Notes: generated by a model from the sequence alone, not told the origin. DNA of 64,000 nucleotides from an uncultured Methanomassiliicoccales archaeon (GCA_963732855.1 CAVTBB010000005.1:139821-203820); one strand, 5' to 3'; positions 83 to 11,039 are shown, counted from the stretch's first letter. Translations and numbers: made by a program.

Positions 83-1489
83 TTACAACTCGTAGTTCTT
101 CGGGTTGAACGCCTGGACGTCCTTGTAGGCCTTCAGGCATTGATCGAGGAACTTTCCTTCCTCGTCTGGGAGGGCCTTCAGGTCGGTCAGGACCTTGTTC
201 AGCATGTCGCTCTCGTGCTTGCTGAGCTTCAGACCGTTCTTGGTCTTGGCGGACTCTGCGATCAATTCGGCTGCCTTGATACCGGCTGCCCTTGACCTCA
301 GGTAGATGTTGTTGCCTTCTGCGACAATTGCCTCTCCGATCTTGTAGGCGTTGTCGTACCGCAGACAGAACGCCTCTGGGGATCTGTACGAGTCGCATGC
401 TGCGTAGATATCCCTGAGGACCTTGTCCTGCTTCAGCTGTTTCGCTGTGTTCATCAAGGCCGCCTCGTATCCTATGACTCCGAGCCAGCACTGGACGGAT
501 GAGCCACCGAACTCCGGGTGGTATTCAACCGACTCGTTGGACCACAGGTCGCAGGTCGACGCGATGAGGTTACCCATCAGGTCAGCGTGGGCGTCTTGGG
601 CTCCCTTCCCCTCTTGGGCAGATGGGCGTCCAGAGATTGCCTTCAGGATCGGGCCTTCATAGCCGCAGTCCTTGTCCGGGCCAGTTGCACCGCACTCGAT
701 TGCCACCAGGGTTCTGGCGGAAGCGATGCAGCGAGTAACTGCCGCGAAGGTCCTCGGGATATCCTTGTCCAAGTAGCCACCGGCCATGAACATCGAGGTG
801 TTGGCACCGGCGCAGTTTGTGTCTCCGCCAGCGATGACCTTGTTCTTCTTGGCGATGTCAACGATCTTGGTCCACATGTACTCCATATCCATGGAGCCCA
901 GGTAGCCGATACCGAAGAGCCATCCGCGGATATCCTGGTGTAGGATACCGTAGTCGGACATCTCCTTGCCGCCCATGGACTCGATCGAGAGGACATCGGC
1001 GCCGTTCTTGGCTGCGACTTCGATGGACTCGATGACCTTCTCCGGGTAGGATGACTTCTTGTCCATTCCTTCCCTCAGGCCCTTCTCGGCCTCTCTCATG
1101 TCAGGCAGGGTGTGCCTGATTGCGGTCATGATTCCGTACTCATCGTGGTACTTCTTCATGAGCTCTTTCTGGCCCGCTACAACTGGCTTGGCGAACTTTT
1201 CCGGGTCGTTTCCGAGCTGGTAGATCCACTCGTTCTCCAGCTGAACGGCTGGGAATCCGAGGGTGACTGCCCTGTCCATGATGTCCTTGGTGATGTAGTC
1301 GACGTACTCGCGCCTCAGGGTGTCCGGGTTCTTCTCAGCGCCGGGCCTTGGGGCGAAGTTGATCTCTGGCACTACGAATCCCGCACCGGCCTTCATTCCG
1401 AGTCCGTATGAAACTGGGTATTTCGCGTCACCGAAGACGAGGTCGTCTGCGGTCTTGACTTCCATCTTTGTGAATCTCTTAACTGCCAT
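83..1489 (-). CDS. mtaB: methanol:corrinoid methyltransferase MtaB
   Basis: The 468-aa product is collinear over its full length with Methanosarcina MtaB as I recall it (blocks KYHDEYGI, GADxLSIESMGGKE, WSNESVEYHPEFGG, YDNAYKIGE). I moved the start from the track GTG (1498) to ATG 1489, just downstream of AGGAGGTG. It lies immediately downstream of mtaC. Confidence 0.9.
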   Translation of the reverse strand: MAVKRFTKMEVKTADDLVFGDAKYPVSYGLGMKAGAGFVVPEINFAPRPGAEKNPDTLRREYVDYITKDIMDRAVTLGFPAVQLENEWIYQLGNDPEKFAKPVVAGQKELMKKYHDEYGIMTAIRHTLPDMREAEKGLREGMDKKSSYPEKVIESIEVAAKNGADVLSIESMGGKEMSDYGILHQDIRGWLFGIGYLGSMDMEYMWTKIVDIAKKNKVIAGGDTNCAGANTSMFMAGGYLDKDIPRTFAAVTRCIASARTLVAIECGATGPDKDCGYEGPILKAISGRPSAQEGKGAQDAHADLMGNLIASTCDLWSNESVEYHPEFGGSSVQCWLGVIGYEAALMNTAKQLKQDKVLRDIYAACDSYRSPEAFCLRYDNAYKIGEAIVAEGNNIYLRSRAAGIKAAELIAESAKTKNGLKLSKHESDMLNKVLTDLKALPDEEGKFLDQCLKAYKDVQAFNPKNYEL

Positions 1490-1506
1490 TTTTCGCACCT
1501 CCTAAT

Positions 1507-2292
1507 TTAAGCCTTCCCCGATGTGATCTCGTCCCACTTGGAGCGGATCTTCTTCCAGTCCCAGCCGTCGATAGCCTTGTTGGCGAGGCCTGGTCCCTGA
1601 GCTGCTGCTGCAGCGTAGACACCGAGCGGGTATGACTCGACGTATGCCCTGTTGACTGCACCGCCGGCGCAGATGAACGGGATCTCCATTCCATTCTCGA
1701 CGAGCCTCTGGGCAACCTTCGGGAATGCGGACATGGTGGTGGTCATGAGTGCGGTTCCAGTGACGAGCTGGGGCTTGGTCTCCAGGCAGGTCTTCACTAC
1801 GTCATCGACCGGTACATCCCGGCCCATGTCAGTGACACCGTATCCATTCGATCTCAGCATGACGGCGGCGATGTTCTTGCCGATGTCGTGCGGGTCACCC
1901 TCGGCGACCATCATGACGACGTGTCCCTTCATGACCCTGTCGCCCTTCATTGCCTTCTCAGCAACCTTGATGCCCTTGTCGAATGCATCCGCGGCGACCA
2001 TGACGTGCGGTAGGTAGTAGATACCCCGTCCGTACAGCTCGCTGACAACATCCATTCCCTTCAAGAGTCCCTGCTCAACGAGGACTTCCGGGGTATGCTT
2101 GGCCAGTGCGGCCTTTGCATCAGCCTCGACGTCCTTGTACTTCATGAATACAACGTCTTCGGCGACTTTCTTCAACAAAGCGTCCTTCGGGAGAATCTTT
2201 GCTGCTATGTCTTCTGGCTTCTCTTTAGCCTCTACGAGTATATCGTAGCGCTTGAAGATATTGTCGTAGTTTACACTACTTAGGTCCATCAT
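1507..2292 (-). CDS. mtaC: methanol corrinoid protein MtaC (B12-binding)
   Basis: It carries the cobalamin-binding DxHxxG signature (GDPHDIGKN) followed by a Rossmann-like B12 domain, and is paired with mtaB. The start is set to the ATG-ATG at 2292, which follows GAGGTG; the track start is a GTG inside that RBS. Confidence 0.9.
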   Translation of the reverse strand: MMDLSSVNYDNIFKRYDILVEAKEKPEDIAAKILPKDALLKKVAEDVVFMKYKDVEADAKAALAKHTPEVLVEQGLLKGMDVVSELYGRGIYYLPHVMVAADAFDKGIKVAEKAMKGDRVMKGHVVMMVAEGDPHDIGKNIAAVMLRSNGYGVTDMGRDVPVDDVVKTCLETKPQLVTGTALMTTTMSAFPKVAQRLVENGMEIPFICAGGAVNRAYVESYPLGVYAAAAAQGPGLANKAIDGWDWKKIRSKWDEITSGKA

Positions 2293-2370
2293 TTTATACA
2301 CCTCAGATATCCCAAAATCCCAATCGAGGATCTTAGGGTCTCCTCCGAGGCAGGGGATTCATTTTCCGGG

Positions 2371-2378
2371 TATATAAA
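2371..2378 (-). promoter_or_regulatory. candidate TATA box (TTTATATA on minus strand) for mtaCB
   Basis: The forward sequence tatataaa reads TTTATATA on the minus strand, about 80 nt upstream of the mtaC ATG. This matches the archaeal TATA consensus. No TSS data are available. Confidence 0.35.
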
Positions 2379-3200
2379 TCAATTGTTAACGCAATAAATT
2401 CATAATACAATCAAATGAATAATTATACTTAGAAAATCGGTTAAATATTGATTCAAATACAACATGCTGGCATTTATTAATAGAAAATAATTGTTAAATT
2501 ATCATCTTTAAATACTAAGTTTTGACAATACAATTAGATTTATTATAATATATATAATGATTCTGATATTCAACAATCTTTTCAAATTAGTTTTTTTCAT
2601 AATAGGGGCCAGATGAAAAGTGGGATAGGCGGATAATCATGCCTCTCCTAATCCCTCCTCAAAGGAATAATCGATGTACATTTGGAATATGATCATTGAG
2701 AGAATTATGCCCCTAAACCATATCCTTTACCTTGCCGCAGATTAGATCCGACAATGAGCCAGAAAGAATTCCGGAATCTTGAACTCGCAATATATGAAAT
2801 CAACCAGTTGCAATGGATAAAAGGCCAGTATTATCGGGGGAAAAACAATCGGGACATTAACACCCCTAAAATGAATGCTATTCAATTCATATTGGAATTA
2901 TGTTTGCAAAAACTGCAGACATAGATATCAACAATAGTTACGACTATAAAGTTAACAATTGTTTGGGGGTTTATTAGTGCAAGGCTCTTCCGCTTGTCAG
3001 GAAATGAATATGATGAAACGGACCTAGGTAGAGATATTACAAGATACCGAAGGGCAAGGCAGTGATCATAACAGTAGAAGATCGCGAGTCGATCTTCGGG
3101 CCATCTGAAAATGCCGGAGGATACTCCCGAGCTTCCTCCGGCGTCCTGTCTACATCTGGTCCAAGAGCCTCGATAATATTGTTGTCACAAATTCTTTTTT

Positions 3201-4421
3201 CTAAACCGTTTTGACCCGCCGCAGCCTGCGCGCTGCGAGCATAAGCACAGCGCATAGCACCAGAGGCGGGATGATGACCCCGGCCAGAACGACCCATTCA
3301 TTTCCTTCGTTGACATAACCAAGCTCGAACAGGCCGGTCGTGGAGCCGAAGACCACCGTGCTGTTCTTTGTGATCGCCGGGGAACCGACGAAACCTGTGC
3401 TGATGTGATAGGTCCAGCGGACTGAGCCATCCGTCTTGACCGAGTACAAGGTGGTATCAGACCCGGCATAGCAGATCCCGCCGGAATCTATGGCCAACGA
3501 CCTGGTTACGTTGAATCCTTCGAGCTTCAGGGTCCAGCCGACGCTCCCGTTCGGATCGAGCGCTGTGAGGCTTCCGTTTCCGGTCAGTACCATTGACCAA
3601 TCATCCGACCTGATGCCTATCGAGGAGATTACCGGGGCACCGGTATAGTAAGACCAGACCAATTCTCCGTTGGGCGAGACACAATAAACGCTACCGTCGT
3701 TCGACCCGAAATGCACGTTCCCGGCGCTGTCGATCGAAGGCGACGTGCGCACTGCCCCGGTACTGTTGAATGTCCATATCGGCGTGCCGGTCCAATCCAG
3801 CGCATAGAGCTTCCCATCCTCACCGCCAAAGTATATGTTACCATTGTTGGCGATGGCGGGAGAGGAGCGCGATGTCACGTTCTCCAATATCCTCCAGTTC
3901 AGATGGCCGTCAAGAGTGAATGACATCAGGCCAGCCGAGGTGACAAAGAGGGTTTGGTTCTGTACGATGGTGGGCGAGGACCAGATCGGGGCGCTGGTGT
4001 TATACTCCCACCATCGGGTGCCGTTCCCGTCCAGGCAGTAGATGAACATGTCCGTGCTGCCGACGTAGGCGGTATCGTTCCACCCTACCGCAGGCGTTCC
4101 CATGAGGGTGTCGTTACCGACATATCTGTTCATGGACGTGTGATCGGCGCTGAGCCGGTACAGGACTGTACCACTGCTGGCGAAGTATGTGCCCCGGCCG
4201 GATATGACGACAGAAGCGTTTCCTGGGGCCCAGTATGGGACCCAAATGACTGCTTGCCCGGGATTGGAGGAAGTGTCGTAGGCCGACCTGCTGGTATGGC
4301 TCGGATCGCCCATGAACATAGGCCATGGCGCCGAAACAGCTTCTGCGACTGCGTCCTGACCGGCCATCGACACGGTCAGGGTCAACAGCGCAGCGACGAT
4401 CATCAATGTCCTGAGCTTCAT
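3201..4421 (-). CDS. surface-anchored PQQ-like beta-propeller repeat protein
   Basis: It has an N-terminal signal-like segment (MKLRTLMIVAALLTLTVSMAG), repeated 'xxxSSPAIxxxGxIYxGSxDGxLYAL'-type blades, many N-x-S/T sequons, and a C-terminal TM segment with a basic tail (RRLRRVK). I trimmed the start to M25 of the track ORF. Confidence 0.7.
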   Translation of the reverse strand: MKLRTLMIVAALLTLTVSMAGQDAVAEAVSAPWPMFMGDPSHTSRSAYDTSSNPGQAVIWVPYWAPGNASVVISGRGTYFASSGTVLYRLSADHTSMNRYVGNDTLMGTPAVGWNDTAYVGSTDMFIYCLDGNGTRWWEYNTSAPIWSSPTIVQNQTLFVTSAGLMSFTLDGHLNWRILENVTSRSSPAIANNGNIYFGGEDGKLYALDWTGTPIWTFNSTGAVRTSPSIDSAGNVHFGSNDGSVYCVSPNGELVWSYYTGAPVISSIGIRSDDWSMVLTGNGSLTALDPNGSVGWTLKLEGFNVTRSLAIDSGGICYAGSDTTLYSVKTDGSVRWTYHISTGFVGSPAITKNSTVVFGSTTGLFELGYVNEGNEWVVLAGVIIPPLVLCAVLMLAARRLRRVKTV

Positions 4422-4616
4422 CCCGATCCCGGTACTCACCAGGATAGTTGGAGATAATACTTTCCACTGGTGGAGTAGAATGACGGACCTCACCCCAAGA
4501 AAAGTGCCTTGGCGATCGAGCCGGTCGAATGGTCCGGAACGGTACTACCGCCAAGTTCTTATCCTCGCAGGGCTAAACAGTGTGGCCCAGGTTCATATTT
4601 ACCTGGGGAGATTATC

Positions 4617-5231
4617 ATGGTGGACTACGAAGCGCTGTTGGCAAAATTCCGATCTTGGACAGACGGTCTCGACCTTGTCGAGAGCAGAGTGGCGCTCTTC
4701 GAACGCGTCCGTGATATCCCATTCAGGCCGACGGTGAAACTTTATAGCGAGTGGGATGCCCCCGATAGGACTATCGCCCAGAACTTCGGCGGTAGCGAGG
4801 CCAAGAGCATCCTGCTGGGAACGCTATTCGAGATGTTGAACATCCGTGTAATGTATGCCACATACTCGTTTCGCTGGGAGAACCTACGGGTGGAATACCC
4901 CTCGAACCTGAGGCAATACGTCCGAGCGATACCGGTCTCATTCCACACCGCGTTCAAGGCCAATATCGATGGAGAATGGGTAATGATCGATCCCACCTAC
5001 GACCTGCCGCTAGGAAAGGTAGCGTTCAGGGTGAACCGTTCCTGGAACGGGTCCTCGGACATGATGCTCGGTGTCGTCGAACGGGAAGAGATCGTGCATA
5101 CCGACCCGGTCGAAAGAGCCAAGTACGCCAAACTTCGGCACGATCGATACGATGAAGAGCAGACAGCATCGCTGACCGAGTTCTATGAGAACCTCAACTC
5201 TTGGTTGGAAACATTGCGGATTGAGAAGTGA
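4617..5231 (+). CDS. transglutaminase-like fold protein (nucleophile position not Cys)
   Basis: The His (SFHTAF) and Asp (WVMIDPTYD) parts of the transglutaminase-like core are recognisable. The expected G-x-C segment reads GGSEAKS instead. The ATG at 4617 is preceded by GGGGAG. Confidence 0.5.
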   Translation: MVDYEALLAKFRSWTDGLDLVESRVALFERVRDIPFRPTVKLYSEWDAPDRTIAQNFGGSEAKSILLGTLFEMLNIRVMYATYSFRWENLRVEYPSNLRQYVRAIPVSFHTAFKANIDGEWVMIDPTYDLPLGKVAFRVNRSWNGSSDMMLGVVEREEIVHTDPVERAKYAKLRHDRYDEEQTASLTEFYENLNSWLETLRIEK

Positions 5232-5233
5232 AA

Positions 5234-5322
5234 TGGAGCAGGGACCGCGATTTGAACACGGGTATGCGGATATCCGCCATATAAGGCTGCAGTCCGCCAC
5301 ATGGCCGCTCTGTCATCCCTGC
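5234..5322 (-). tRNA. tRNA-Cys (GCA) with a 15-nt intron at 37/38 and a genomically encoded CCA
   Basis: The minus strand reads GCAGGGA-UG-...-GCGGA CUGCAG [CCUUAUAUGGCGGAU] A UCCGC AUAC CCGUG UUCAAAU CGCGG UCCCUGC U CCA. Acceptor, anticodon and T arms all pair, and the discriminator is U73 as in tRNA-Cys. The D-stem pairing is imperfect. Confidence 0.75.
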
Positions 5323-5412
5323 GTAACGGGCTAATTCTGTTCAACATATATTAGTTTATCTCATACTGGATTGATTGTGGATAATCACAGAAGCATCGTT
5401 CGATTTAGCGAG

Positions 5413-6303
5413 CTAAGGTCGTTTCTTCTGAGATATCTTTTTTGGGGCAGATGGTTTGACCGTCTTCCTAACCGTTTTCGGCTTTGATCCCTTTGGAGAG
5501 GGAACAGCTTGAGCAACCGGTGATTCGAGCGATCTAGCTAGGATATCACCGAGCCCATCAGACATCTTCCTGAGATCTAGAACGCGGGATTCAAGCTCCC
5601 TTCTTGATATTATCTTGGGGCGGTCCTTGTTGACGCTATAAGCGACGGAGCCGTCGGTGAATGCCACAAACTCGACATGGGCGATGCTGTTGCGCAGCTG
5701 GCGGTCGCATGCTCGGGCGACGATGTCCAGCCCGTTGTCCTGGAGGAACCGGAGCTTGTTCGCCAGACTGTCCTCGGCGATGGCGTCCAGCTCCGACGTC
5801 CCGGGCCGGCAATAACCCATATCGTAACGGTGGCCCGATTTGTGGAGAAGGACCGTCAGGACGTTGAGCTGGGTGGCGTAGATGCCTTCCACCAGCATGA
5901 GGTAGTAATGGAGCATGAGCCGGGTCTCATCCTCCGAGGTACGGGAATCGATATCGTTGCCGTACCTGGTCATCAGGATGTAGTACTCGGTGGTGTTGTG
6001 CAGCTTGGCCTGCATCTGCGGCAGCATCTGCCCCCTGATATGCTCGAGAACCTGGGGTTCCCTCACCTTGGCAAAGAGCCCGTTCACTATCGGGGTTAGA
6101 ATGCGCAGGATCTCTGGATCTACAGGTGGGATGACCCGATCCCAGCTGGCTTCGACGGACATCTCCTTCTGTTTATCGTCCAGCGATGAGTACCGTTCGA
6201 AATCCGCTCGGCTGATGGCCTTGAGCCTGGCCTCGAATAACCTCCTCCGAAGCGAGGCGATGCTGACGCTGAGACCGCTGCTAGATTGCATCCCTATCCC
6301 CAC
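5413..6303 (-). CDS. HEPN/Abi_2-like protein (RNxxAH motif) with Lys-rich C-terminal tail
   Basis: The protein is all-helical and carries CDRQLRNSIAHVEF, which matches the Rx4H HEPN signature in the RN..AH form typical of Abi-like proteins. The C-terminus is a basic tail (KGSKPKTVRKTVKPSAPKKISQKKRP). Confidence 0.5.
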   Translation of the reverse strand: MGIGMQSSSGLSVSIASLRRRLFEARLKAISRADFERYSSLDDKQKEMSVEASWDRVIPPVDPEILRILTPIVNGLFAKVREPQVLEHIRGQMLPQMQAKLHNTTEYYILMTRYGNDIDSRTSEDETRLMLHYYLMLVEGIYATQLNVLTVLLHKSGHRYDMGYCRPGTSELDAIAEDSLANKLRFLQDNGLDIVARACDRQLRNSIAHVEFVAFTDGSVAYSVNKDRPKIISRRELESRVLDLRKMSDGLGDILARSLESPVAQAVPSPKGSKPKTVRKTVKPSAPKKISQKKRP

Positions 6304-6442
6304 CGGTATCGACCATCGTGGTTATGAGCCTATCTGGTCCAACCCCTCCTGGCCCGGTCAGCTAATGACCCGGATATTTGCGACCTGTCGATGTTGGCAG
6401 GAGATGCCGGGGCTGCCGTTCCATTTGCGATCAAAGGCGCCA

Positions 6443-6877
6443 TCAAGCCTTTCTTCTCCTCAGCATCAGGAATCCGACGATCCCGACGGCAGCGAAACCA
6501 ACCAGGAGCAACAGGATGATCGATCCAACATCTGTCCCGACATCCTTCGGGCCAGCCCTGAAGCTAAGGAACCCGCCATCGTAGTGCTCATCGAACACGG
6601 TCACGTTGACGGTATATTCGCGACCTTCAGCGTAGTCGTGCTCCAAAGGGGCGACCAGGCTCGAGCCGAGGAGAAGGAACGTCGTGTTGCTCCCGTCTCC
6701 GAAGTCGATAACTGCGGAATGATTTCCTTGACCGGGATCGCTGAACCCAATCTGGATGGATAGATGCTTGCCGTTGAAGGACACATTACCAGGATGTTTG
6801 AGGATGGGTGCGACGTTGAACATCTGTACCGGGCAACTGTCCGTTACTGTCATCTTGCCATCGTCACCTTGCACCAT
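6443..6877 (-). CDS. PKD-domain protein with C-terminal TM anchor (possibly 5'-truncated)
   Basis: It has a PKD-like core (FSDPGQGNHSAVIDFGDGSNT...YAEGREYTVNVTVFDE) and a C-terminal TM segment followed by RRRKA. There is no N-terminal signal peptide, although the topology requires one. Confidence 0.5.
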   Translation of the reverse strand: MVQGDDGKMTVTDSCPVQMFNVAPILKHPGNVSFNGKHLSIQIGFSDPGQGNHSAVIDFGDGSNTTFLLLGSSLVAPLEHDYAEGREYTVNVTVFDEHYDGGFLSFRAGPKDVGTDVGSIILLLLVGFAAVGIVGFLMLRRRKA

Positions 6878-6894
6878 ATTCGTTTGACCTCAAC

Positions 6895-7101
6895 GTGGAT
6901 GTGCTGAAGGTGGCGCACCGCGGGAGCCGCTACTCTACCAGCGATGCCTTCCTTGATGCAACCAGCCCGGAAATTGCGGTCATTTGCGTGGGAGAGAACA
7001 CCTATGGGCATCCCACTAACGAGACGCTGTCAAGACTGCTAGACAATGATATCACCGTGCTGCGCACTGACCAGATGGGAACCATTGACATAACGGCCTA
7101 A
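6895..7101 (+). pseudogene. C-terminal remnant of a ComEC/Rec2-type metallo-beta-lactamase domain
   Basis: The 68-aa ORF reads LKVAHRGSRYSTSDAFLDATSPEIAVICVGENTYGHPTNETLSRLLDNDITVLRTDQMGTI. This corresponds to the last ~65 residues of ComEC MBL domains (LKVxHHGS...AViSvG..N.YGHP...L.RL....v.RTD..G). The rest of the gene is absent. Confidence 0.7.
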
Positions 7102-7242
7102 TGATGATAGAAAACGAACAAGGCAGTGTCAGAGCAACTCTGGTCTTCAGCCGAACGATCCATACACCAGATTCCTCGGATATATTAGCCATAGAAAGAG
7201 GATGTTCACCGTATTATCGATCCTCCCGTACCTGAGATATTC

Positions 7243-7250
7243 TTTATATA
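7243..7250 (+). promoter_or_regulatory. candidate TATA box for the 7283 gene
   Basis: TTTATATA lies ~35 nt upstream of the GTG start, and GGGAAGG sits immediately before that start. Confidence 0.3.
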
Positions 7251-7282
7251 CACTTACATAGGATAATTAGTCCGGGAAGGTC

Positions 7283-7969
7283 GTGGTAAGCAGAAGGCGC
7301 CTCAATGCATTCGCCGTCTCGTTCGTGGCCATGTTGATCGTCCAGGCCATCCTCACATATGTGATTGTCCCAGACTATAGACAGAGCGGTTACACCCAGA
7401 GCATCGGAAACGGAATGATTCCGGGGGAGTTCATAGGTTGGGGCGTGCGGACCGAGAACGGAAACAATTTGAACATGGAGGTGAGCGTGCCGGAAGGCTA
7501 CCTGATCGACGTCTACTTCATGAGCTATGATGACTATATGCAGATGGCCTCGAACCATTCGTTCGAATTCATTCCCGCGGCATCTCAGATGAACGTGAGC
7601 CATTTCTCTACTGCCATCAACATGGACCCATCGATCGATATTTACGATATTGTCATCGTCGGGCACGAATCGAATCCGGGAAATCCGACTTTCACATTGA
7701 GACTCGTCCAATCCCATTTCCCAGCCCAGCTCCTGAGCGTCGTACAGCTCGGCCAATTCATATCGATATACTCCGTCGTCCTTTTCTTCTTCCTTGTGAC
7801 CCTGGGTTATCGCGAGAACAGCCTGAATAGGAGCCCATACGTCAAAACCAGACCAAAGACGAAATGGAACAACTTCTATATGCAGTCCGCTTACGCGACC
7901 TTGGCGCTGTTCACTGTCCAGATGACGATGGCTTTGGTCATGTATTGGATCGTGATCGGTCCAGGTTGA
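7283..7969 (+). CDS. hypothetical membrane protein
   Basis: It has an N-terminal TM segment (AFAVSFVAMLIVQAILTYVIV), an extracytoplasmic middle part, and two C-terminal TM segments. I prefer it over the overlapping antisense 295-aa ORF, which has no recognisable features. Confidence 0.5.
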   Translation: MVSRRRLNAFAVSFVAMLIVQAILTYVIVPDYRQSGYTQSIGNGMIPGEFIGWGVRTENGNNLNMEVSVPEGYLIDVYFMSYDDYMQMASNHSFEFIPAASQMNVSHFSTAINMDPSIDIYDIVIVGHESNPGNPTFTLRLVQSHFPAQLLSVVQLGQFISIYSVVLFFFLVTLGYRENSLNRSPYVKTRPKTKWNNFYMQSAYATLALFTVQMTMALVMYWIVIGPG

Positions 7970-8134
7970 GCAATTCGTTCCGATCTTGAGACTGAACGAT
8001 CGAAGGTCAAGACAGTTAGGGGATCGTTTGTCAAAGGACTTTGAACTGACCGCGGGCAAGGACGTCTCGCTGCGCCACTTCAATATCCCGCTGACTGTAC
8101 TGAACATAGCGCGGTCTTTCCCTGCAGACATGTC

Positions 8135-10156
8135 CTATTCTTTGAATTGGATTAGATCAGGTGGACGATTGCTGCGGGCGATCTGATTCTCCAGTATTCT
8201 GGAAACTTCCTCTGGGGTCGATTTCTGCATGACCTTCAATTTGATGGCCAATACATCGATATGGGAGAAGGCGACCTCTTTCGGTTGTGAACCCTCGCTC
8301 TTCTTATTGTCATACTGGATCAGCGCCTCGATTATGCTGTTCTTATGATTTTCCCCAAGTTTCTTTCTTTTCACATAATTGATCTGGGCATTCAACGTGG
8401 GTAAACCAATCTCTACTACGTAGTCAAATCTTCCGTGCCGGGTCACCGCCGGATCAATCTCTGACAGATCTGAATTGGTGATCGTGATTATAATTATCCA
8501 TCTCTTGTCGTGTAATTTCTGCAGCCGTGGCAACATGCCGGCGGTGATAAACGCGCCAGCCGTTCGACTCTCCAGCTGTGCGCTTTGGGGTCGGGTCTTG
8601 AAGAATTCCTCGCACTCGTCCAGTAACACGATGACTCGTCGCATCTTGGTCAGGTCATCGAAGATCTTCGCCGCTTTAGCATCAAATCCTTCCAGCCCAT
8701 TCCTTAGGAAATCAGATGGAGATAGTGTTATCAAGGGCCATTTCAGTGCTTTGGAGATCCTTTTTACGGCAGTTGTCTTTCTTGTACCCGACGGGCCGTG
8801 TATGATCAAAGAGTTCATGCTTGATGGTTGATGAATCCAACTCCTGCTGATCGGTCTTATCATTACGTCCTTAAGGCTGCTAATGAGTGCCGAGCCATTA
8901 GTGGGATCGGAAATGTAATCCAATGCTTCCATCTCGATCCATTCGGGTTTTCGGATGTTCGGGATCATATCAGGCCAAATCGGAAGATTTGGAGTTGGTT
9001 TAGGATAGAAAAGGCTGTAATCCTTCAATAGTAGTTTTTGCCGGAGTTGTTGGAGGGCATCGGAGTAGCTGATCAGGAACATTAGTGTCGTTGCCGTTGC
9101 CCAGGACTCGATGAGACCCGATTTTCGGGTGCGGTCGTTTGACCATCCTGAAATTGTTCCGACCTTGGTAAAGTTGGACTTTGCCAGATTGAATGCCCGA
9201 TCGAGTGCCGGCAGTACCGCCTCGCAAGATTTCAGATCTCCCTGATGAAGACGTCTTATCAGGAGGTGAGTTAGTGATAGGGCGACCTCATAGCTTGAAA
9301 CATGGATCATTACGTTTCCTTCATACGAAATGTTAGTTGTTGGCCAGGCCCCGTCATGAAGTTGGGAATCCACTATCGATTGGATTGCCCGAGATGTAAG
9401 CAGGTCCGTATTGGAGACCTCGAAACGGTTCAGAAGAGCTATGCAGAACATGAGTTCCGCTGGATCATATTTTGACGTCACCCCAGCATATTCATATGCC
9501 AGGAGGCGCAGGAAGTCTTCCCTGATTTGTTCGATCAAGATAGGATCGGCTTCAAAGGTCCAATCGGGATAGGCAGAATGCAACATGTCCAGCGCCCTGA
9601 TCATATGGAGGGTCACCAAATGATGCACTTCATCTTTGGGACTTGCCTTTCCCCCACACCATTCCTCCAATTGAGTTCGGTTCTCCTCAGCGATCTTCAA
9701 GGCAGCTTCCCTCATGAGGTCGAGGTCTACGTCCAGTGAGGTTACTTCCAACAGATCGCCTAGAATCGAAACAGAGAAAAGGATCTGACTATCCGTGAAC
9801 ATGTTGATGCCGTTCGTTTCAGAACGTCTCGCTAGAGCAGGTTCACCCACAAGTCTCGATAGATATTTCTCGCAAACACCTTTCAGAATGGAGGTCATTT
9901 TGTCTTGTTCGCCTGGTATCTTTTCATCATCCAGTAGATCGGCCTCGTAAAGAAACCGCAGATACTGATGTAGAGCGATGAAGGAGCAATTGGTCGAAGT
10001 TGGATGTAATTTGCCATCCTTTTCGTTTAACTGGCGGATCGTACGCCAAAAGGTTCCATTCTCCGGATTATAGAATGCTTCGAGAGATCTTCCAGCCCGC
10101 AATATCCAATCCTGAAGGGAATTGATCTTCTCATCGAGATGAGCTATCTCAATCAT
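8135..10156 (-). CDS. fusion protein: N-terminal alpha/alpha-toroid-like (QW-type repeats) domain + C-terminal classical AAA ATPase
   Basis: The C-terminal ~200 aa are classical AAA: P-loop GPSGTRKT, Walker B VIVLLDECEE, sensor-1 ITITN, and DPAVTRHGRFDYVVEIGLP. The N-terminal ~400 aa are helical with NPENGTFW, QLHDGAWP and GTISGWSN motifs that resemble terpenoid-cyclase/prenyltransferase QW repeats. Confidence 0.8.
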   Translation of the reverse strand: MIEIAHLDEKINSLQDWILRAGRSLEAFYNPENGTFWRTIRQLNEKDGKLHPTSTNCSFIALHQYLRFLYEADLLDDEKIPGEQDKMTSILKGVCEKYLSRLVGEPALARRSETNGINMFTDSQILFSVSILGDLLEVTSLDVDLDLMREAALKIAEENRTQLEEWCGGKASPKDEVHHLVTLHMIRALDMLHSAYPDWTFEADPILIEQIREDFLRLLAYEYAGVTSKYDPAELMFCIALLNRFEVSNTDLLTSRAIQSIVDSQLHDGAWPTTNISYEGNVMIHVSSYEVALSLTHLLIRRLHQGDLKSCEAVLPALDRAFNLAKSNFTKVGTISGWSNDRTRKSGLIESWATATTLMFLISYSDALQQLRQKLLLKDYSLFYPKPTPNLPIWPDMIPNIRKPEWIEMEALDYISDPTNGSALISSLKDVMIRPISRSWIHQPSSMNSLIIHGPSGTRKTTAVKRISKALKWPLITLSPSDFLRNGLEGFDAKAAKIFDDLTKMRRVIVLLDECEEFFKTRPQSAQLESRTAGAFITAGMLPRLQKLHDKRWIIIITITNSDLSEIDPAVTRHGRFDYVVEIGLPTLNAQINYVKRKKLGENHKNSIIEALIQYDNKKSEGSQPKEVAFSHIDVLAIKLKVMQKSTPEEVSRILENQIARSNRPPDLIQFKE

Positions 10157-10159
10157 GTG

Positions 10160-10372
10160 TTATGTTCTCCCGTTTACATGATGTTGAGAATAGCCCACCG
10201 TACTTGAACCAATCCGTAAGATCAGGACTATTTCCTTCAAGGAACTGATCGCTCCGCCTTCATCTTGTAAATCAATGACTCGTTTAATTCTCTCCCTCAC
10301 AACCAAATACCGGCCATACCGCTGTTTTTCATCGAACAAATCAATGCTGTCCTCTTGGGGGAGCGGGATCAT
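10160..10372 (-). CDS. small ORF, possible HTH protein, translationally coupled to the AAA fusion gene
   Basis: Its stop (TAA) is 3 nt before the AAA-fusion ATG. The segment SLKEIVLILRIGSSTVGY looks HTH-like. I saw no clear promoter upstream, and its start abuts the start of the pseudogene on the opposite strand. Confidence 0.35.
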   Translation of the reverse strand: MIPLPQEDSIDLFDEKQRYGRYLVVRERIKRVIDLQDEGGAISSLKEIVLILRIGSSTVGYSQHHVNGRT

Positions 10373-10977
10373 GACAACAGTAGGCCAGAATAGAGATCAG
10401 AAGGTGGGAAAGGTGATCCTGGGCATGGCAATGTCCCTCGACAGTTATATCAATGGTCGCAACGGAAGTGTCGATCGATTGTATCCGACCTCGAGGCGTT
10501 GAGAAAGACAAGGATCCTACGGGAAATGATACGTGACAAGGGGGCTGTGGTGTGGCAGGAACGCCTTTGCAATGTCAGAGGACCCGGATACGTATGCTGA
10601 TAGTTACGCATTTCAGCTCCCGATCATCGTCATGATACACAACAAACCGGAAAAGAAGCCGAAAAAGACGGACCGATTGAAGTTCATCTTTATATCTGAC
10701 GGTATCGAAAAGGCAATAGAAAAAGCTCAAGAAGTTGCCGATGGGAAGGTTGTCACTGTGATCGGCGGAGCAAAAGTTGCCCATCAATGCTTGTCTGCGG
10801 CTTGATCGATGAACTTCATGTCGATCTAATGCCGGTCTTGTTGGGCAGAGGCTTCGGTTCTTTGAGGATATCGGCACCGAGCATGTCAGGCTTGAGAAGA
10901 TCGAGGTCCTTGAATCGGTCAACGGTGGGACGTACATCAGGTTCCGGGTTGAGAACTCTAACCGAAACGATGGCTGA
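10371..10977 (+). pseudogene. dihydrofolate-reductase-family (RibD C-terminal domain) gene with at least 4 frame changes
   Basis: I re-framed the pieces by hand: KVILGMAMSLDSYINGRNGSVDRLYP / DLEALRKTRILREMIRDKGAVV / GRNAFAM...VVTVIGGAKVAHQCLSA / GLIDELHVDLMPVLLGRG / RLRFFEDIGTEHVRLEKIEVLESVNGGTYIRFRVEN. Together they reconstitute a typical family member across three frames. Confidence 0.75.
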
Positions 10978-11039
10978 TGGCGTGCAATGCGATGCGTTGA
11001 CGGTCAAAGCTATTAGCGGCTTTGCCATTCAGGATTGAA

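Follow-up and report, generated by a model that had tools for sequence, protein, structure and literature searches.

AAA ATPases of the classical clade share a layout in which an N-terminal specificity domain is followed by the motor, and the modules nearest by sequence to the protein described here are the D1 and D2 modules of Afg2/Drg1, p97/Cdc48 and VAT. A protein with this layout is encoded within a 64,000-nucleotide (nt) stretch of DNA from an uncultured Methanomassiliicoccales archaeon (GCA_963732855.1, CAVTBB010000005.1:139821-203820), the whole of which is referred to below as the window. The gene occupies positions 8135 to 10156 on the minus strand, including a stop codon at 8135 to 8137, and its product of 673 amino acids (aa) joins a predicted N-terminal (alpha/alpha)6 toroid to a C-terminal AAA module; it is termed toroid-AAA. 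With the classical proteins this module shares the PF00004 core, a Walker B motif of the form hhhhDE, the sensor-1 Asn, a second region of homology (SRH) of the form xxRxGRFD and a helical lid. It differs from them in being single rather than tandem, in following a toroid and not a double-psi barrel, MIT, OB or transmembrane domain, in having an Arg within the P-loop and in a pore-loop 1 that reads Gly-Leu-Glu. We know of no described system in which a toroid::AAA protein is the constant component. The reading that we favor, with moderate confidence, is that an undescribed toroid-AAA ATPase forms the core of a nucleotide-linked, and probably conflict-related, cassette in bacteria and was acquired from bacteria as a solo gene by an archaeon. 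The parts of this reading that concern architecture and horizontal transfer are much more secure than the part that concerns function.

A preliminary description of the locus, made from the sequence of the window alone, had assigned the C-terminal third of the protein to the classical AAA clade, and this assignment held. PF00004 matched aa 451 to 584 (E = 6.5e-17; 62.6 bits against a cutoff of 21.2), and a family profile matched the PDB sequences of Afg2, VAT, p97/Cdc48, Rix7, NSF and FtsH with E values down to 1e-31, the best matches being classical-clade proteins. The alpha/beta core, delimited by PF00004 and by PDB sequence matches to Afg2, p97 and VAT, spans aa 446 to 585 (positions 8402 to 8821; minus strand, as for all features of this gene). 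The motifs cited at the outset translated as claimed, namely, the Walker A motif GPSGTRKT (8774 to 8797), the Walker B motif IVLLDECEE with D513 and E514 (8606 to 8632) and the SRH, TNSDLSEIDPAVTRHGRFD (8423 to 8479), with sensor-1 N561, R573 and R576. The sensor-1/SRH segment, in which T560-N561 is present, aligned with ATNRPNSVDPALRRPGRFD of Afg2. A C-terminal helical lid and tail, with helices at aa 588 to 659 in an AlphaFold2 (AF2) model and conserved residues P586, A590, Q591 and Y594, occupies aa 586 to 673 (8138 to 8401). Clusters of apparently conserved open reading frames (ORFs) antisense to the AAA gene were set aside as artefacts.

Relative to the consensus GxxGxGK[ST], the Walker A motif keeps the Lys and the Thr and has Arg in place of the second conserved Gly. 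Among 136 family members with a recognizable P-loop, this position was Arg in 94, Gly in 26, Ser in 15 and Ala in 1; most of these members have the Arg, and it is not a lesion of the archaeal copy. The Walker A Lys and Thr, D513, E514, N561, R573 and R576 were each conserved in at least 90% of an alignment of 129 family sequences, and because every other catalytic residue stays conserved, the Arg-type P-loop is probably ATP-competent. An alternative is that the Arg abolishes nucleotide binding and that the AAA module acts as a scaffold only. This proposal draws on the aligned classical AAA proteins in the PDB, in which the position is Gly (GPPGTGKT in Afg2), but it is quite improbable, because such conservation of the catalytic residues would not be expected after loss of catalysis; in addition, members that are otherwise alike differ in having Arg, Gly, Ser or Ala there. 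MCM proteins have Ala or Ser at the same position and yet are active.

The pore loop bears on a different aspect of the motor. The KYLG of pore-loop 1 in Afg2 D1 aligned to NGLE, so that the aromatic-hydrophobic-Gly motif is absent; G487, at the position of the aromatic residue, was near-invariant (at least 90% conserved), and L488 was also conserved. A near-invariant Gly at this site weakens a reading of the protein as a threading unfoldase and leaves its membership of the AAA family unaffected. The aromatic residue is likewise missing from pore-loop 1 of p97 D1. The function first put forward, a ligand- or target-binding toroid coupled to an unfoldase or a switch, is hence doubtful with regard to the term unfoldase.

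An AF2 monomer model of the full-length protein, built from an 18-sequence alignment, had a pLDDT of 86.3 and a pTM of 0.88. Foldseek searches with this model were dominated by AAA matches, and the N-terminal domain was, therefore, modeled alone, giving twelve long helices with a pLDDT of 87.7 and a pTM of 0.90. All matches of this second model to the PDB were (alpha/alpha)6 barrels, weak in each case (best E = 1.6e-3; TM, 0.48 to 0.59), and comprised GH76 mannanase, YihS/AGE isomerases, squalene-hopene cyclase (8paj and 8pak), oxidosqualene cyclases, GH88/GH105 and complement C3d/C4d. The N-terminal domain (aa 1 to 380; positions 9017 to 10156) is, with high confidence, predicted to adopt an (alpha/alpha)6 toroid, in line with what had been proposed. 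It is followed by a linker (aa 381 to 445; 8822 to 9016) with conserved W394, D396, D417-P418 and P444, which in the model consists of short helices of lower confidence.

The preliminary description had listed three QW-like motifs in the toroid, and one of these stood. QLHDGAWP lies in a single QW-type repeat at aa 250 to 272 (TDLLTSRAIQSIVDSQLHDGAWP; 9341 to 9409), its residues Q265, G269 and W271 were nearly invariant across the family, and the segment from about aa 242 to 272, a helix plus QxxDGxWP, aligned to QW repeats of squalene-hopene cyclase 2sqc (whole-sequence E = 0.007). The Trp of NPENGTFW was not conserved, and GTISGWSN has conserved G337, W338 and D341 in a pattern that is not of the QW type. 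A profile of the N-terminal domain gave eight marginal matches to PDB sequences, of which six were terpene cyclases. Membership of the terpenoid cyclase/prenyltransferase superfamily is nonetheless tentative, because the Foldseek matches to six-hairpin glycosidases and isomerases (GH76 and YihS) were equally weak. No DxDD motif, thioester GCGEQ or prenyltransferase Zn ligands were seen in the alignments, which were read by eye, and there was no invariant Cys. Nearly invariant polar or aromatic residues of the toroid were R187, D231, Q265, W271, E290, W338, D341 and W352; the invariant polar residues (R187, D190, D231, E290, D341 and E350) suggest the presence of a specific pocket.

A word-index protein search with the full-length query returned 17 full-length homologs with the same N-terminus and length as the 673-aa protein. 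Five of these, all from Methanomassiliicoccales, were 81 to 90% identical to it, while the other 12 were 37 to 51% identical, only one of them carrying a taxon label (an Acidobacteriota metagenome-assembled genome [MAG]). An exhaustive phmmer search with the N-terminal domain detected 219 representative clusters at E ≤ 1e-3, with lengths of mostly 600 to 880 aa among the matches listed. An AAA domain, matching PF00004, was present in 65 of 66 diverse long members that were scanned, and the toroid is, therefore, normally fused to an AAA module. A scan of 185,579 species genomes with a single peptide pattern, which is not an exhaustive census, returned five loci and placed the family in only three Methanomassiliicoccales assemblies. 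The family had no matches in viral contigs and phage genomes, and a member was carried by one of 72,556 plasmid records (Parabacteroides distasonis). Overall, the toroid-AAA family is rare and mostly bacterial, and its distant members are often solo.

The protein had been described as one that could not be placed in any known family or system, and the searches agreed. No model in Pfam, NCBIfam or PADLOC matched aa 1 to 430 of the source protein, and none of the 66 diverse members had a Pfam family for the N-terminal domain, which fits no described family. PADLOC recognized no system, as had been expected; its matches were weak and domain level (IetA, TRIP13, mad2, PDC-M51B, dGTPase and dCTPase), and those of the ATPase were confined to the AAA part. 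Literature searches for the GPSGTRKT P-loop string, for conflict systems combining a toroid with AAA and for combinations of SnoaL, ThyX, thymidylate kinase (TMK) and HIT found no description. Within the reach of these libraries and searches, the toroid fusion, the family-wide Arg P-loop and the cassettes with nucleotide enzymes described below are undescribed, while the AAA part is of a known kind.

The bacterial relatives provided the evidence for a link to nucleotides. In the nearer branch (loci and contigs are numbered with the prefix L), every bacterial context had a gene for a class I S-adenosylmethionine (SAM)-dependent methyltransferase (MTase) fused to a SnoaL_2/NTF2-like domain directly upstream of the toroid-AAA gene on the same strand. 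A hidden Markov model (HMM) of this partner detected the arrangement in 22 distinct bacterial loci, and in the called examples the MTase::SnoaL gene overlapped the toroid-AAA gene or ended within a few nucleotides of it. About half of the 22 loci also carried a nucleotide kinase gene. This was a TMK family gene directly downstream in seven loci (L004, L021, L022, L025, L027 and the fragments L048 and L051) and an adjacent AAA_17/18 cytidylate kinase-like gene in five (L028 to L030, L032 and L033). Proteins with HD and HD_assoc_2 domains, resembling dGTPases, were encoded nearby in L021, L028 and L031, and a plain HD domain protein was encoded in L004, which additionally has a DCD/guanylate kinase protein and an N6_N4 methylase. 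In that locus, a run on the minus strand at 930 to 6447, beside the MTase::SnoaL/toroid-AAA/TMK cassette, contains genes for the guanylate kinase plus DCD protein, the N6_N4 methylase, the HD protein and a 569-aa protein; this run looks like a second nucleotide-centered module.

A deeper branch was reached through the sole match in the plasmid database, that of P. distasonis, and has different partners. The gene order in L062 is a tandem ThyX-like gene (539 aa), toroid-AAA (33% identity; E = 1e-49), HIT, a MazG-like nucleoside triphosphate (NTP) pyrophosphatase (match to 3nl9, E = 6e-29) and DHFR. In L065 and L067, Thy1 precedes toroid-AAA, with DHFR_1 or HIT alongside, and in L063 and L064 toroid-AAA is followed by DcpS_C/HIT without ThyX; within this branch HIT/DcpS_C comes after toroid-AAA either directly or past a small ORF. 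A natural toroid-AAA::HIT/DcpS_C fusion was found in an 887-aa protein from an ENA metagenome (P0177); by the Rosetta stone argument, this fusion supports the idea that the ATPase is functionally linked to the HIT nucleotide hydrolase encoded downstream of it elsewhere. The ThyX-like genes, located directly upstream of toroid-AAA (L062, 6733 to 8352; L065, 4388 to 6001; L067, 4380 to 5993), encode proteins of about 537 to 539 aa. The tandem halves of the L062 protein had weak similarity to solved ThyX structures (E of about 0.004), while the L065 and L067 homologs carry Pfam Thy1; these proteins may represent an unusual family of nucleotide methylases. Thus, toroid-AAA is the constant gene of the cassettes, while the nucleotide-type methylase that precedes it and the nucleotide kinase or hydrolase that follows it are exchangeable.

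Genes within 6 to 8 kb of the cassettes were also inspected, and association with defence was judged by eye. The neighbors included DpnII-MboI and Schlafen/AlbA_2 (L063), SIR2_2 (L005 and L067), HipBA (L067), Phd-YoeB (L007), HTH_3 with an M78 peptidase (L009), a resolvase with a STAND-like NTPase (L003), N6_N4 methylases (L004, L027 and L042), HNH (L043) and an integrase (L044). Such neighbors suggest defence or mobile islands. As the recurrent partners are nucleotide enzymes and defence or mobile genes are often nearby, the ATPase can be read as the core of a cassette that would modify or sense nucleotides in a conflict setting.

The same partners are open to a metabolic explanation, which is the main rival. 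Here, the toroid would be an enzyme or a channeling scaffold in an alternative pathway for pyrimidine nucleotides or nucleoside natural products, with the AAA module as its assembly factor or activase; for example, the ThyX-like protein or SAM-methyltransferase would methylate a substrate resembling (deoxy)uridylate, kinase and HIT steps would follow, and the archaeal copy would be a moonlighting leftover. All of the recurrent partners (ThyX-like, DHFR, MazG-like, TMK-like, HIT and HD proteins) are indeed nucleotide enzymes, both SnoaL-type domains and class I methyltransferases commonly serve as tailoring modules, and P450/ABM, LodA and tyrosinase genes lie near some loci. The invariant acidic and basic residues of the toroid resemble an active site, and its nearest folds are enzymes. 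On the other hand, no core biosynthetic genes were conserved around the pair, the neighbors beyond the cassette varied from locus to locus, and many loci adjoin restriction, SIR2, Schlafen or toxin-antitoxin genes. The failure to see the class II cyclase DxDD, GCGEQ or Zn ligands by eye, and the conservation of archaeal and other solo copies that have no pathway partner, also speak against such a pathway. Overall, a metabolic role outside conflict, including the version with successive methylation and kinase or HIT steps, appears doubtful but deserves to be kept in view.

Several observations weigh against the conflict-cassette reading that we favor. The enrichment in defence neighbors is a judgement by eye without a background model, and the ThyX-like/DHFR setting in Bacteroidota is equally compatible with ordinary thymidylate metabolism. 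Several of the distant members stand alone in ordinary surroundings, such as beside relA/spoT in L035. The family is absent from the phage and viral sets and occurs in a single plasmid record, so that its mobility is conjectural. PADLOC placed neither the ATPase nor its partners in a known or candidate system and, in the window, found no recognizable defence gene beside the ATPase. The variable, conflict-type context that had been suggested for the locus is thus plausible for the family, given the bacterial defence neighbors and the differing archaeal flanks described below. Finally, the mechanism is deduced from architecture and gene neighborhood in a family with no characterized homolog, ATP binding by the Arg-type P-loop is likewise deduced from conservation, and the tree used for the transfer described below is a simple one.

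The archaeal gene has been retained in a functional state. Within the archaeal clade, the ratio of nonsynonymous to synonymous substitution (dN/dS) was 0.04 to 0.07 for both the toroid and the AAA domain; these values show that the 673-aa ORF is a real gene subject to strong purifying selection and exclude a decaying pseudogene. A comparison of the window gene with that of its closest relative, contig L001 (10001 to 12022), gave a dS of 0.95 with a dN/dS of 0.06, while the dS for four flanking genes was about 3-fold lower (0.25 to 0.35). The GC content at third codon positions (GC3) also differed (0.53 versus 0.65). The high dS and the gap in GC3 suggest either that recombination has replaced the allele or that its mutational history was different. 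In a MAG of another Methanomassiliicoccales archaeon (MFD04780.bin.2.98; L016, 722 to 3890), the toroid-AAA gene is broken by frameshifts into five pieces and immediately follows a 277-aa transposase-like ORF; the fragmentation reflects either real decay or a long-read assembly error.

None of the bacterial partners accompanies the archaeal gene. Homologs of MTase::SnoaL, ThyX, TMK and HIT were absent from the whole 64-kb window and were also absent near the gene in the archaeal contigs L001, L010 to L013, L019 and L020; for MTase::SnoaL, HMM and tblastn searches were negative over the window and all of the archaeal contigs. Two candidates were rejected: a 284-aa upstream gene of L001 had no homology to a bacterial partner, and the region of the window in which a remnant of the MTase::SnoaL gene might have been expected (10218 to 10998) contains an unrelated RibD_C pseudogene on the opposite strand. 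Since the solo copy is under purifying selection, the archaeal function cannot depend on the bacterial cassette partners. In a neighbor-joining distance tree without support values, the archaeal clade was located inside the MTase-linked bacterial clade as sister to L021, a locus with the MTase::SnoaL partner, a TMK gene and an HD gene. The window gene, therefore, appears from its position in this tree to be a solo derivative of an MTase::SnoaL plus toroid-AAA cassette and not a complete instance of one.

In all of the archaeal contigs seen, the gene has a conserved position between the DUF7714 and Lactamase_B genes, while the immediate flanks differ between close relatives on both sides. The upstream flank holds a RibD_C pseudogene in the window; L001 has the unrelated 284-aa gene there, and L010 and L013 have small divergent ORFs. 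On the downstream side in the window, there is a 68-codon remnant of Lactamase_B followed by a unique 228-aa membrane ORF, with a unique PKD ORF just upstream of the remnant. These findings indicate that the archaeal gene was probably acquired horizontally, lies in a recombination-prone, low-GC hotspot and has been kept functional. A housekeeping role, in which the protein would be a lineage-specific AAA enzyme for quality control or remodeling in Methanomassiliicoccales with the toroid as substrate adaptor, could account for the strong purifying selection, the constant DUF7714/Lactamase_B position and the membership of a classical clade that includes PAN, Cdc48 and FtsH. Such a role is unlikely. 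Only three Methanomassiliicoccales assemblies were detected by the pattern scan, non-exhaustive as it was, one copy is fragmented beside a transposase-like ORF, and the archaeal sequences nest in a bacterial clade. The gene also has a low GC content and a dS three times that of its neighbors, the protein falls far short of the NCBIfam cutoffs for PAN, Cdc48 and FtsH, and the pore-loop aromatic residue is missing.

The base composition of the locus was AT-richer than its surroundings, as had been noted. The GC content was 0.474 for the toroid-AAA gene, 0.49 to 0.50 for its flanks and 0.549 for the whole window; values of 0.47 to 0.50 extended from about 7100 to 11000, while the conserved flanking genes had values of 0.56 to 0.58. 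Elsewhere in the window there is a sharp GC trough at 2001 to 3000 (0.35 to 0.42, with about 0.55 to 0.59 on both sides).

The first interpretation of the locus had been a two-gene operon in which a 70-aa ORF with a helix-turn-helix (HTH)-like segment, as regulator or adaptor, was translationally coupled to a toroid-AAA sensor-effector. Both ORFs were present as reported, at 8135 to 10156 (673 aa) and 10160 to 10372 (70 aa), both on the minus strand and joined by TAA CAC ATG, so that the shorter one ends 3 nt before the ATG of the longer. This proximity on the same strand is what speaks for an operon. The 70-aa ORF, however, had no HTH or other match at E ≤ 0.1 in Pfam, NCBIfam or PADLOC, its frame was interrupted by stops or indels in L001, L013 and L010, and no gene was called at this position in any of four archaeal contigs. 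Upstream conservation was limited to the last ~60 nt before the ATG and was that of DNA rather than of a reading frame. The spacer that separates the toroid-AAA ATG (10156) from the divergent RibD_C start (~10371) is exactly filled by this ORF, and ORFs of such a size are common by chance in this region, with 81 of at least 40 aa within 9 kb. Furthermore, the conserved partners of the relatives are entirely different, being MTase::SnoaL or ThyX-like upstream and TMK-like or HIT downstream. The 70-aa ORF is not a gene but a fortuitous reading frame within a divergent promoter spacer; it does not co-occur with toroid-AAA in the relatives, and an operon of the two ORFs is extremely improbable. 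The preliminary description had thus spotted a real and unusual protein and misidentified its partner, and in annotation no gene should be called at the adjacent 70-aa ORF.

The main conserved stretch upstream of the gene, shared by the window, L001, L013 and L010, is a 32-nt non-coding block at 10186 to 10217 on the minus strand, ACGGATTGGTTCAAGTACGGTGGGCTATTCTC. Within it, about 48 nt from the ATG, is a TATA-like TTCAAGTA, and a GGAG is located 11 to 14 nt before the ATG. Further upstream, the sequences of these four contigs are unrelated. The block and the GGAG probably constitute the promoter and ribosome-binding site of the toroid-AAA gene itself; an alternative to the probable promoter is that the block is a regulatory RNA or a DNA site.

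The two gene wrecks that had been reported on either side of the locus were also recovered. On the upstream side, divergent from toroid-AAA, a frameshifted RibD_C (DHFR family) pseudogene on the plus strand starts at about 10371 and ends at approximately 11000. It consists of three fragments in different frames, which when joined matched PF01872 (E = 2.2e-10), and is exclusive to the source genome, there being none in L001, L010 or L013. Bona fide DHFR genes adjoin the toroid-AAA cassettes of Bacteroidota (L062 and L065), a parallel that may be a coincidence. On the downstream side, the C-terminal remnant of a Lactamase_B (ComEC-type) gene is located at 6878 to 7101 on the plus strand, with its last 68 codons at 6895 to 7101. 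In L001, L010 and L013, an intact Lactamase_B gene (~400 aa) lies downstream of toroid-AAA, and the remnant was 79% identical to its 3′ end at the nucleotide level and 76 to 87% identical at the amino acid level. The remnant is bordered by the PKD domain ORF (6443 to 6877, minus strand) and by the ORF for the predicted 228-aa membrane protein (7283 to 7969, plus strand), neither of which has a counterpart in the related contigs.

A tentative mechanism can be outlined from these results. The 673-aa ORF is a functional gene, probably transcribed on its own, and the 70-aa ORF plays no part in it. The toroid would be the specificity module, predicted to bind a small ligand or a partner protein, and the AAA module would form a putative ring that hydrolyzes ATP, with the P-loop Arg as a tolerated family trait. 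Hydrolysis would drive remodeling or switching rather than processive threading or unfolding. In bacteria, toroid-AAA is the constant middle gene of small accessory cassettes, between an upstream SAM-methyltransferase::SnoaL or tandem ThyX-like gene and a downstream gene for a thymidylate kinase-like, other P-loop kinase, HIT/DcpS-like or MazG-like protein, with HD/dGTPase-like or DHFR genes nearby. The motor would there control or assist enzymes that methylate, phosphorylate or hydrolyze pyrimidine nucleotides, most likely in a conflict setting. A Methanomassiliicoccales lineage would have taken the gene from the methyltransferase-linked bacterial branch and kept the ATPase only, and in the archaeon the motor would act alone on its target. 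A logic resembling that of restriction-modification, with the methyltransferase guarding against the ATPase, was considered unlikely, as solo copies are stably maintained.

A more specific version of the conflict-cassette reading is possible and is offered tentatively, as one that we regard as less than probable. In this version, toroid::AAA would be the constant core of an unrecognized class of conflict systems that make, sense or destroy a modified pyrimidine nucleotide. The ThyX-like or SAM-methyltransferase::NTF2 proteins would be exchangeable "writers" and the TMK-like, HIT and MazG-like proteins exchangeable "processors," while the toroid would read the nucleotide or an invader protein and the Arg P-loop ring would gate the response. 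The archaeal copy would then be a repurposed cross-domain capture of the sensor-motor.

If the favored reading is correct, there is a new protein family that combines a terpenoid cyclase-like toroid with a classical AAA motor having a non-canonical, conserved Arg P-loop. New small cassettes would tie this family to pyrimidine nucleotide enzymes in defence island-like regions of many bacterial phyla and would provide a concrete candidate for an undescribed mechanism of nucleotide-based immunity or nucleotide modification. The archaeal copy would show that the motor is useful alone and would be a clean case of gene transfer from bacteria to archaea at a variable hotspot. The frequent interchange of Gly, Arg and Ser at the Walker A position is, for AAA enzymology, a natural experiment on the tolerance of the P-loop.

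Comparison with described systems places the protein at some distance from each. For the housekeeping AAA proteins of archaea (PAN, Cdc48/VAT, FtsH and RFC), the best NCBIfam scores were 27 to 41 bits against cutoffs of 280 to 1008. With the toroids of terpenoid cyclases, prenyltransferases and thioester proteins (squalene-hopene cyclase and C3d), the N-terminal domain shares a predicted 12-helix barrel and one QxxDGxWP repeat; it differs from the cyclases and prenyltransferases in having that single QW repeat only and in giving no Pfam prenyltransferase or SQHop_cyclase match. The best PADLOC match of the ATPase (E = 4.6e-11) was to IetA, a defence-associated AAA protein of the classical type that belongs, together with the IetS protease, to the IetAS (IetA/IteA plus IetS) anti-phage system. 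The match was limited to aa 446 to 633 in the AAA part, with none on the toroid; the NCBIfam IteA score was 36.5 bits against a cutoff of 510, and no IetS-like or other protease family gene was present among the called or Pfam-annotated neighbors at any locus. Nucleotide-based defence cassettes include prokaryotic viperins with adjacent kinases and depletion systems that employ dCTP deaminases or dGTPases, and the comparison with these is by analogy only. The core in the toroid-AAA loci is not a radical-SAM protein, a deaminase or a dGTPase, the PADLOC matches to dGTPase, dCTPase and PDC-M51B were weak and partial, and the window copy has none of the partners present in the bacterial relatives. 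The likeness, by analogy, resides in those relatives, which pair a nucleotide-type methylase (ThyX-like or SAM-MTase) with TMK-like, HIT, MazG-like and HD proteins, beside other defence genes.

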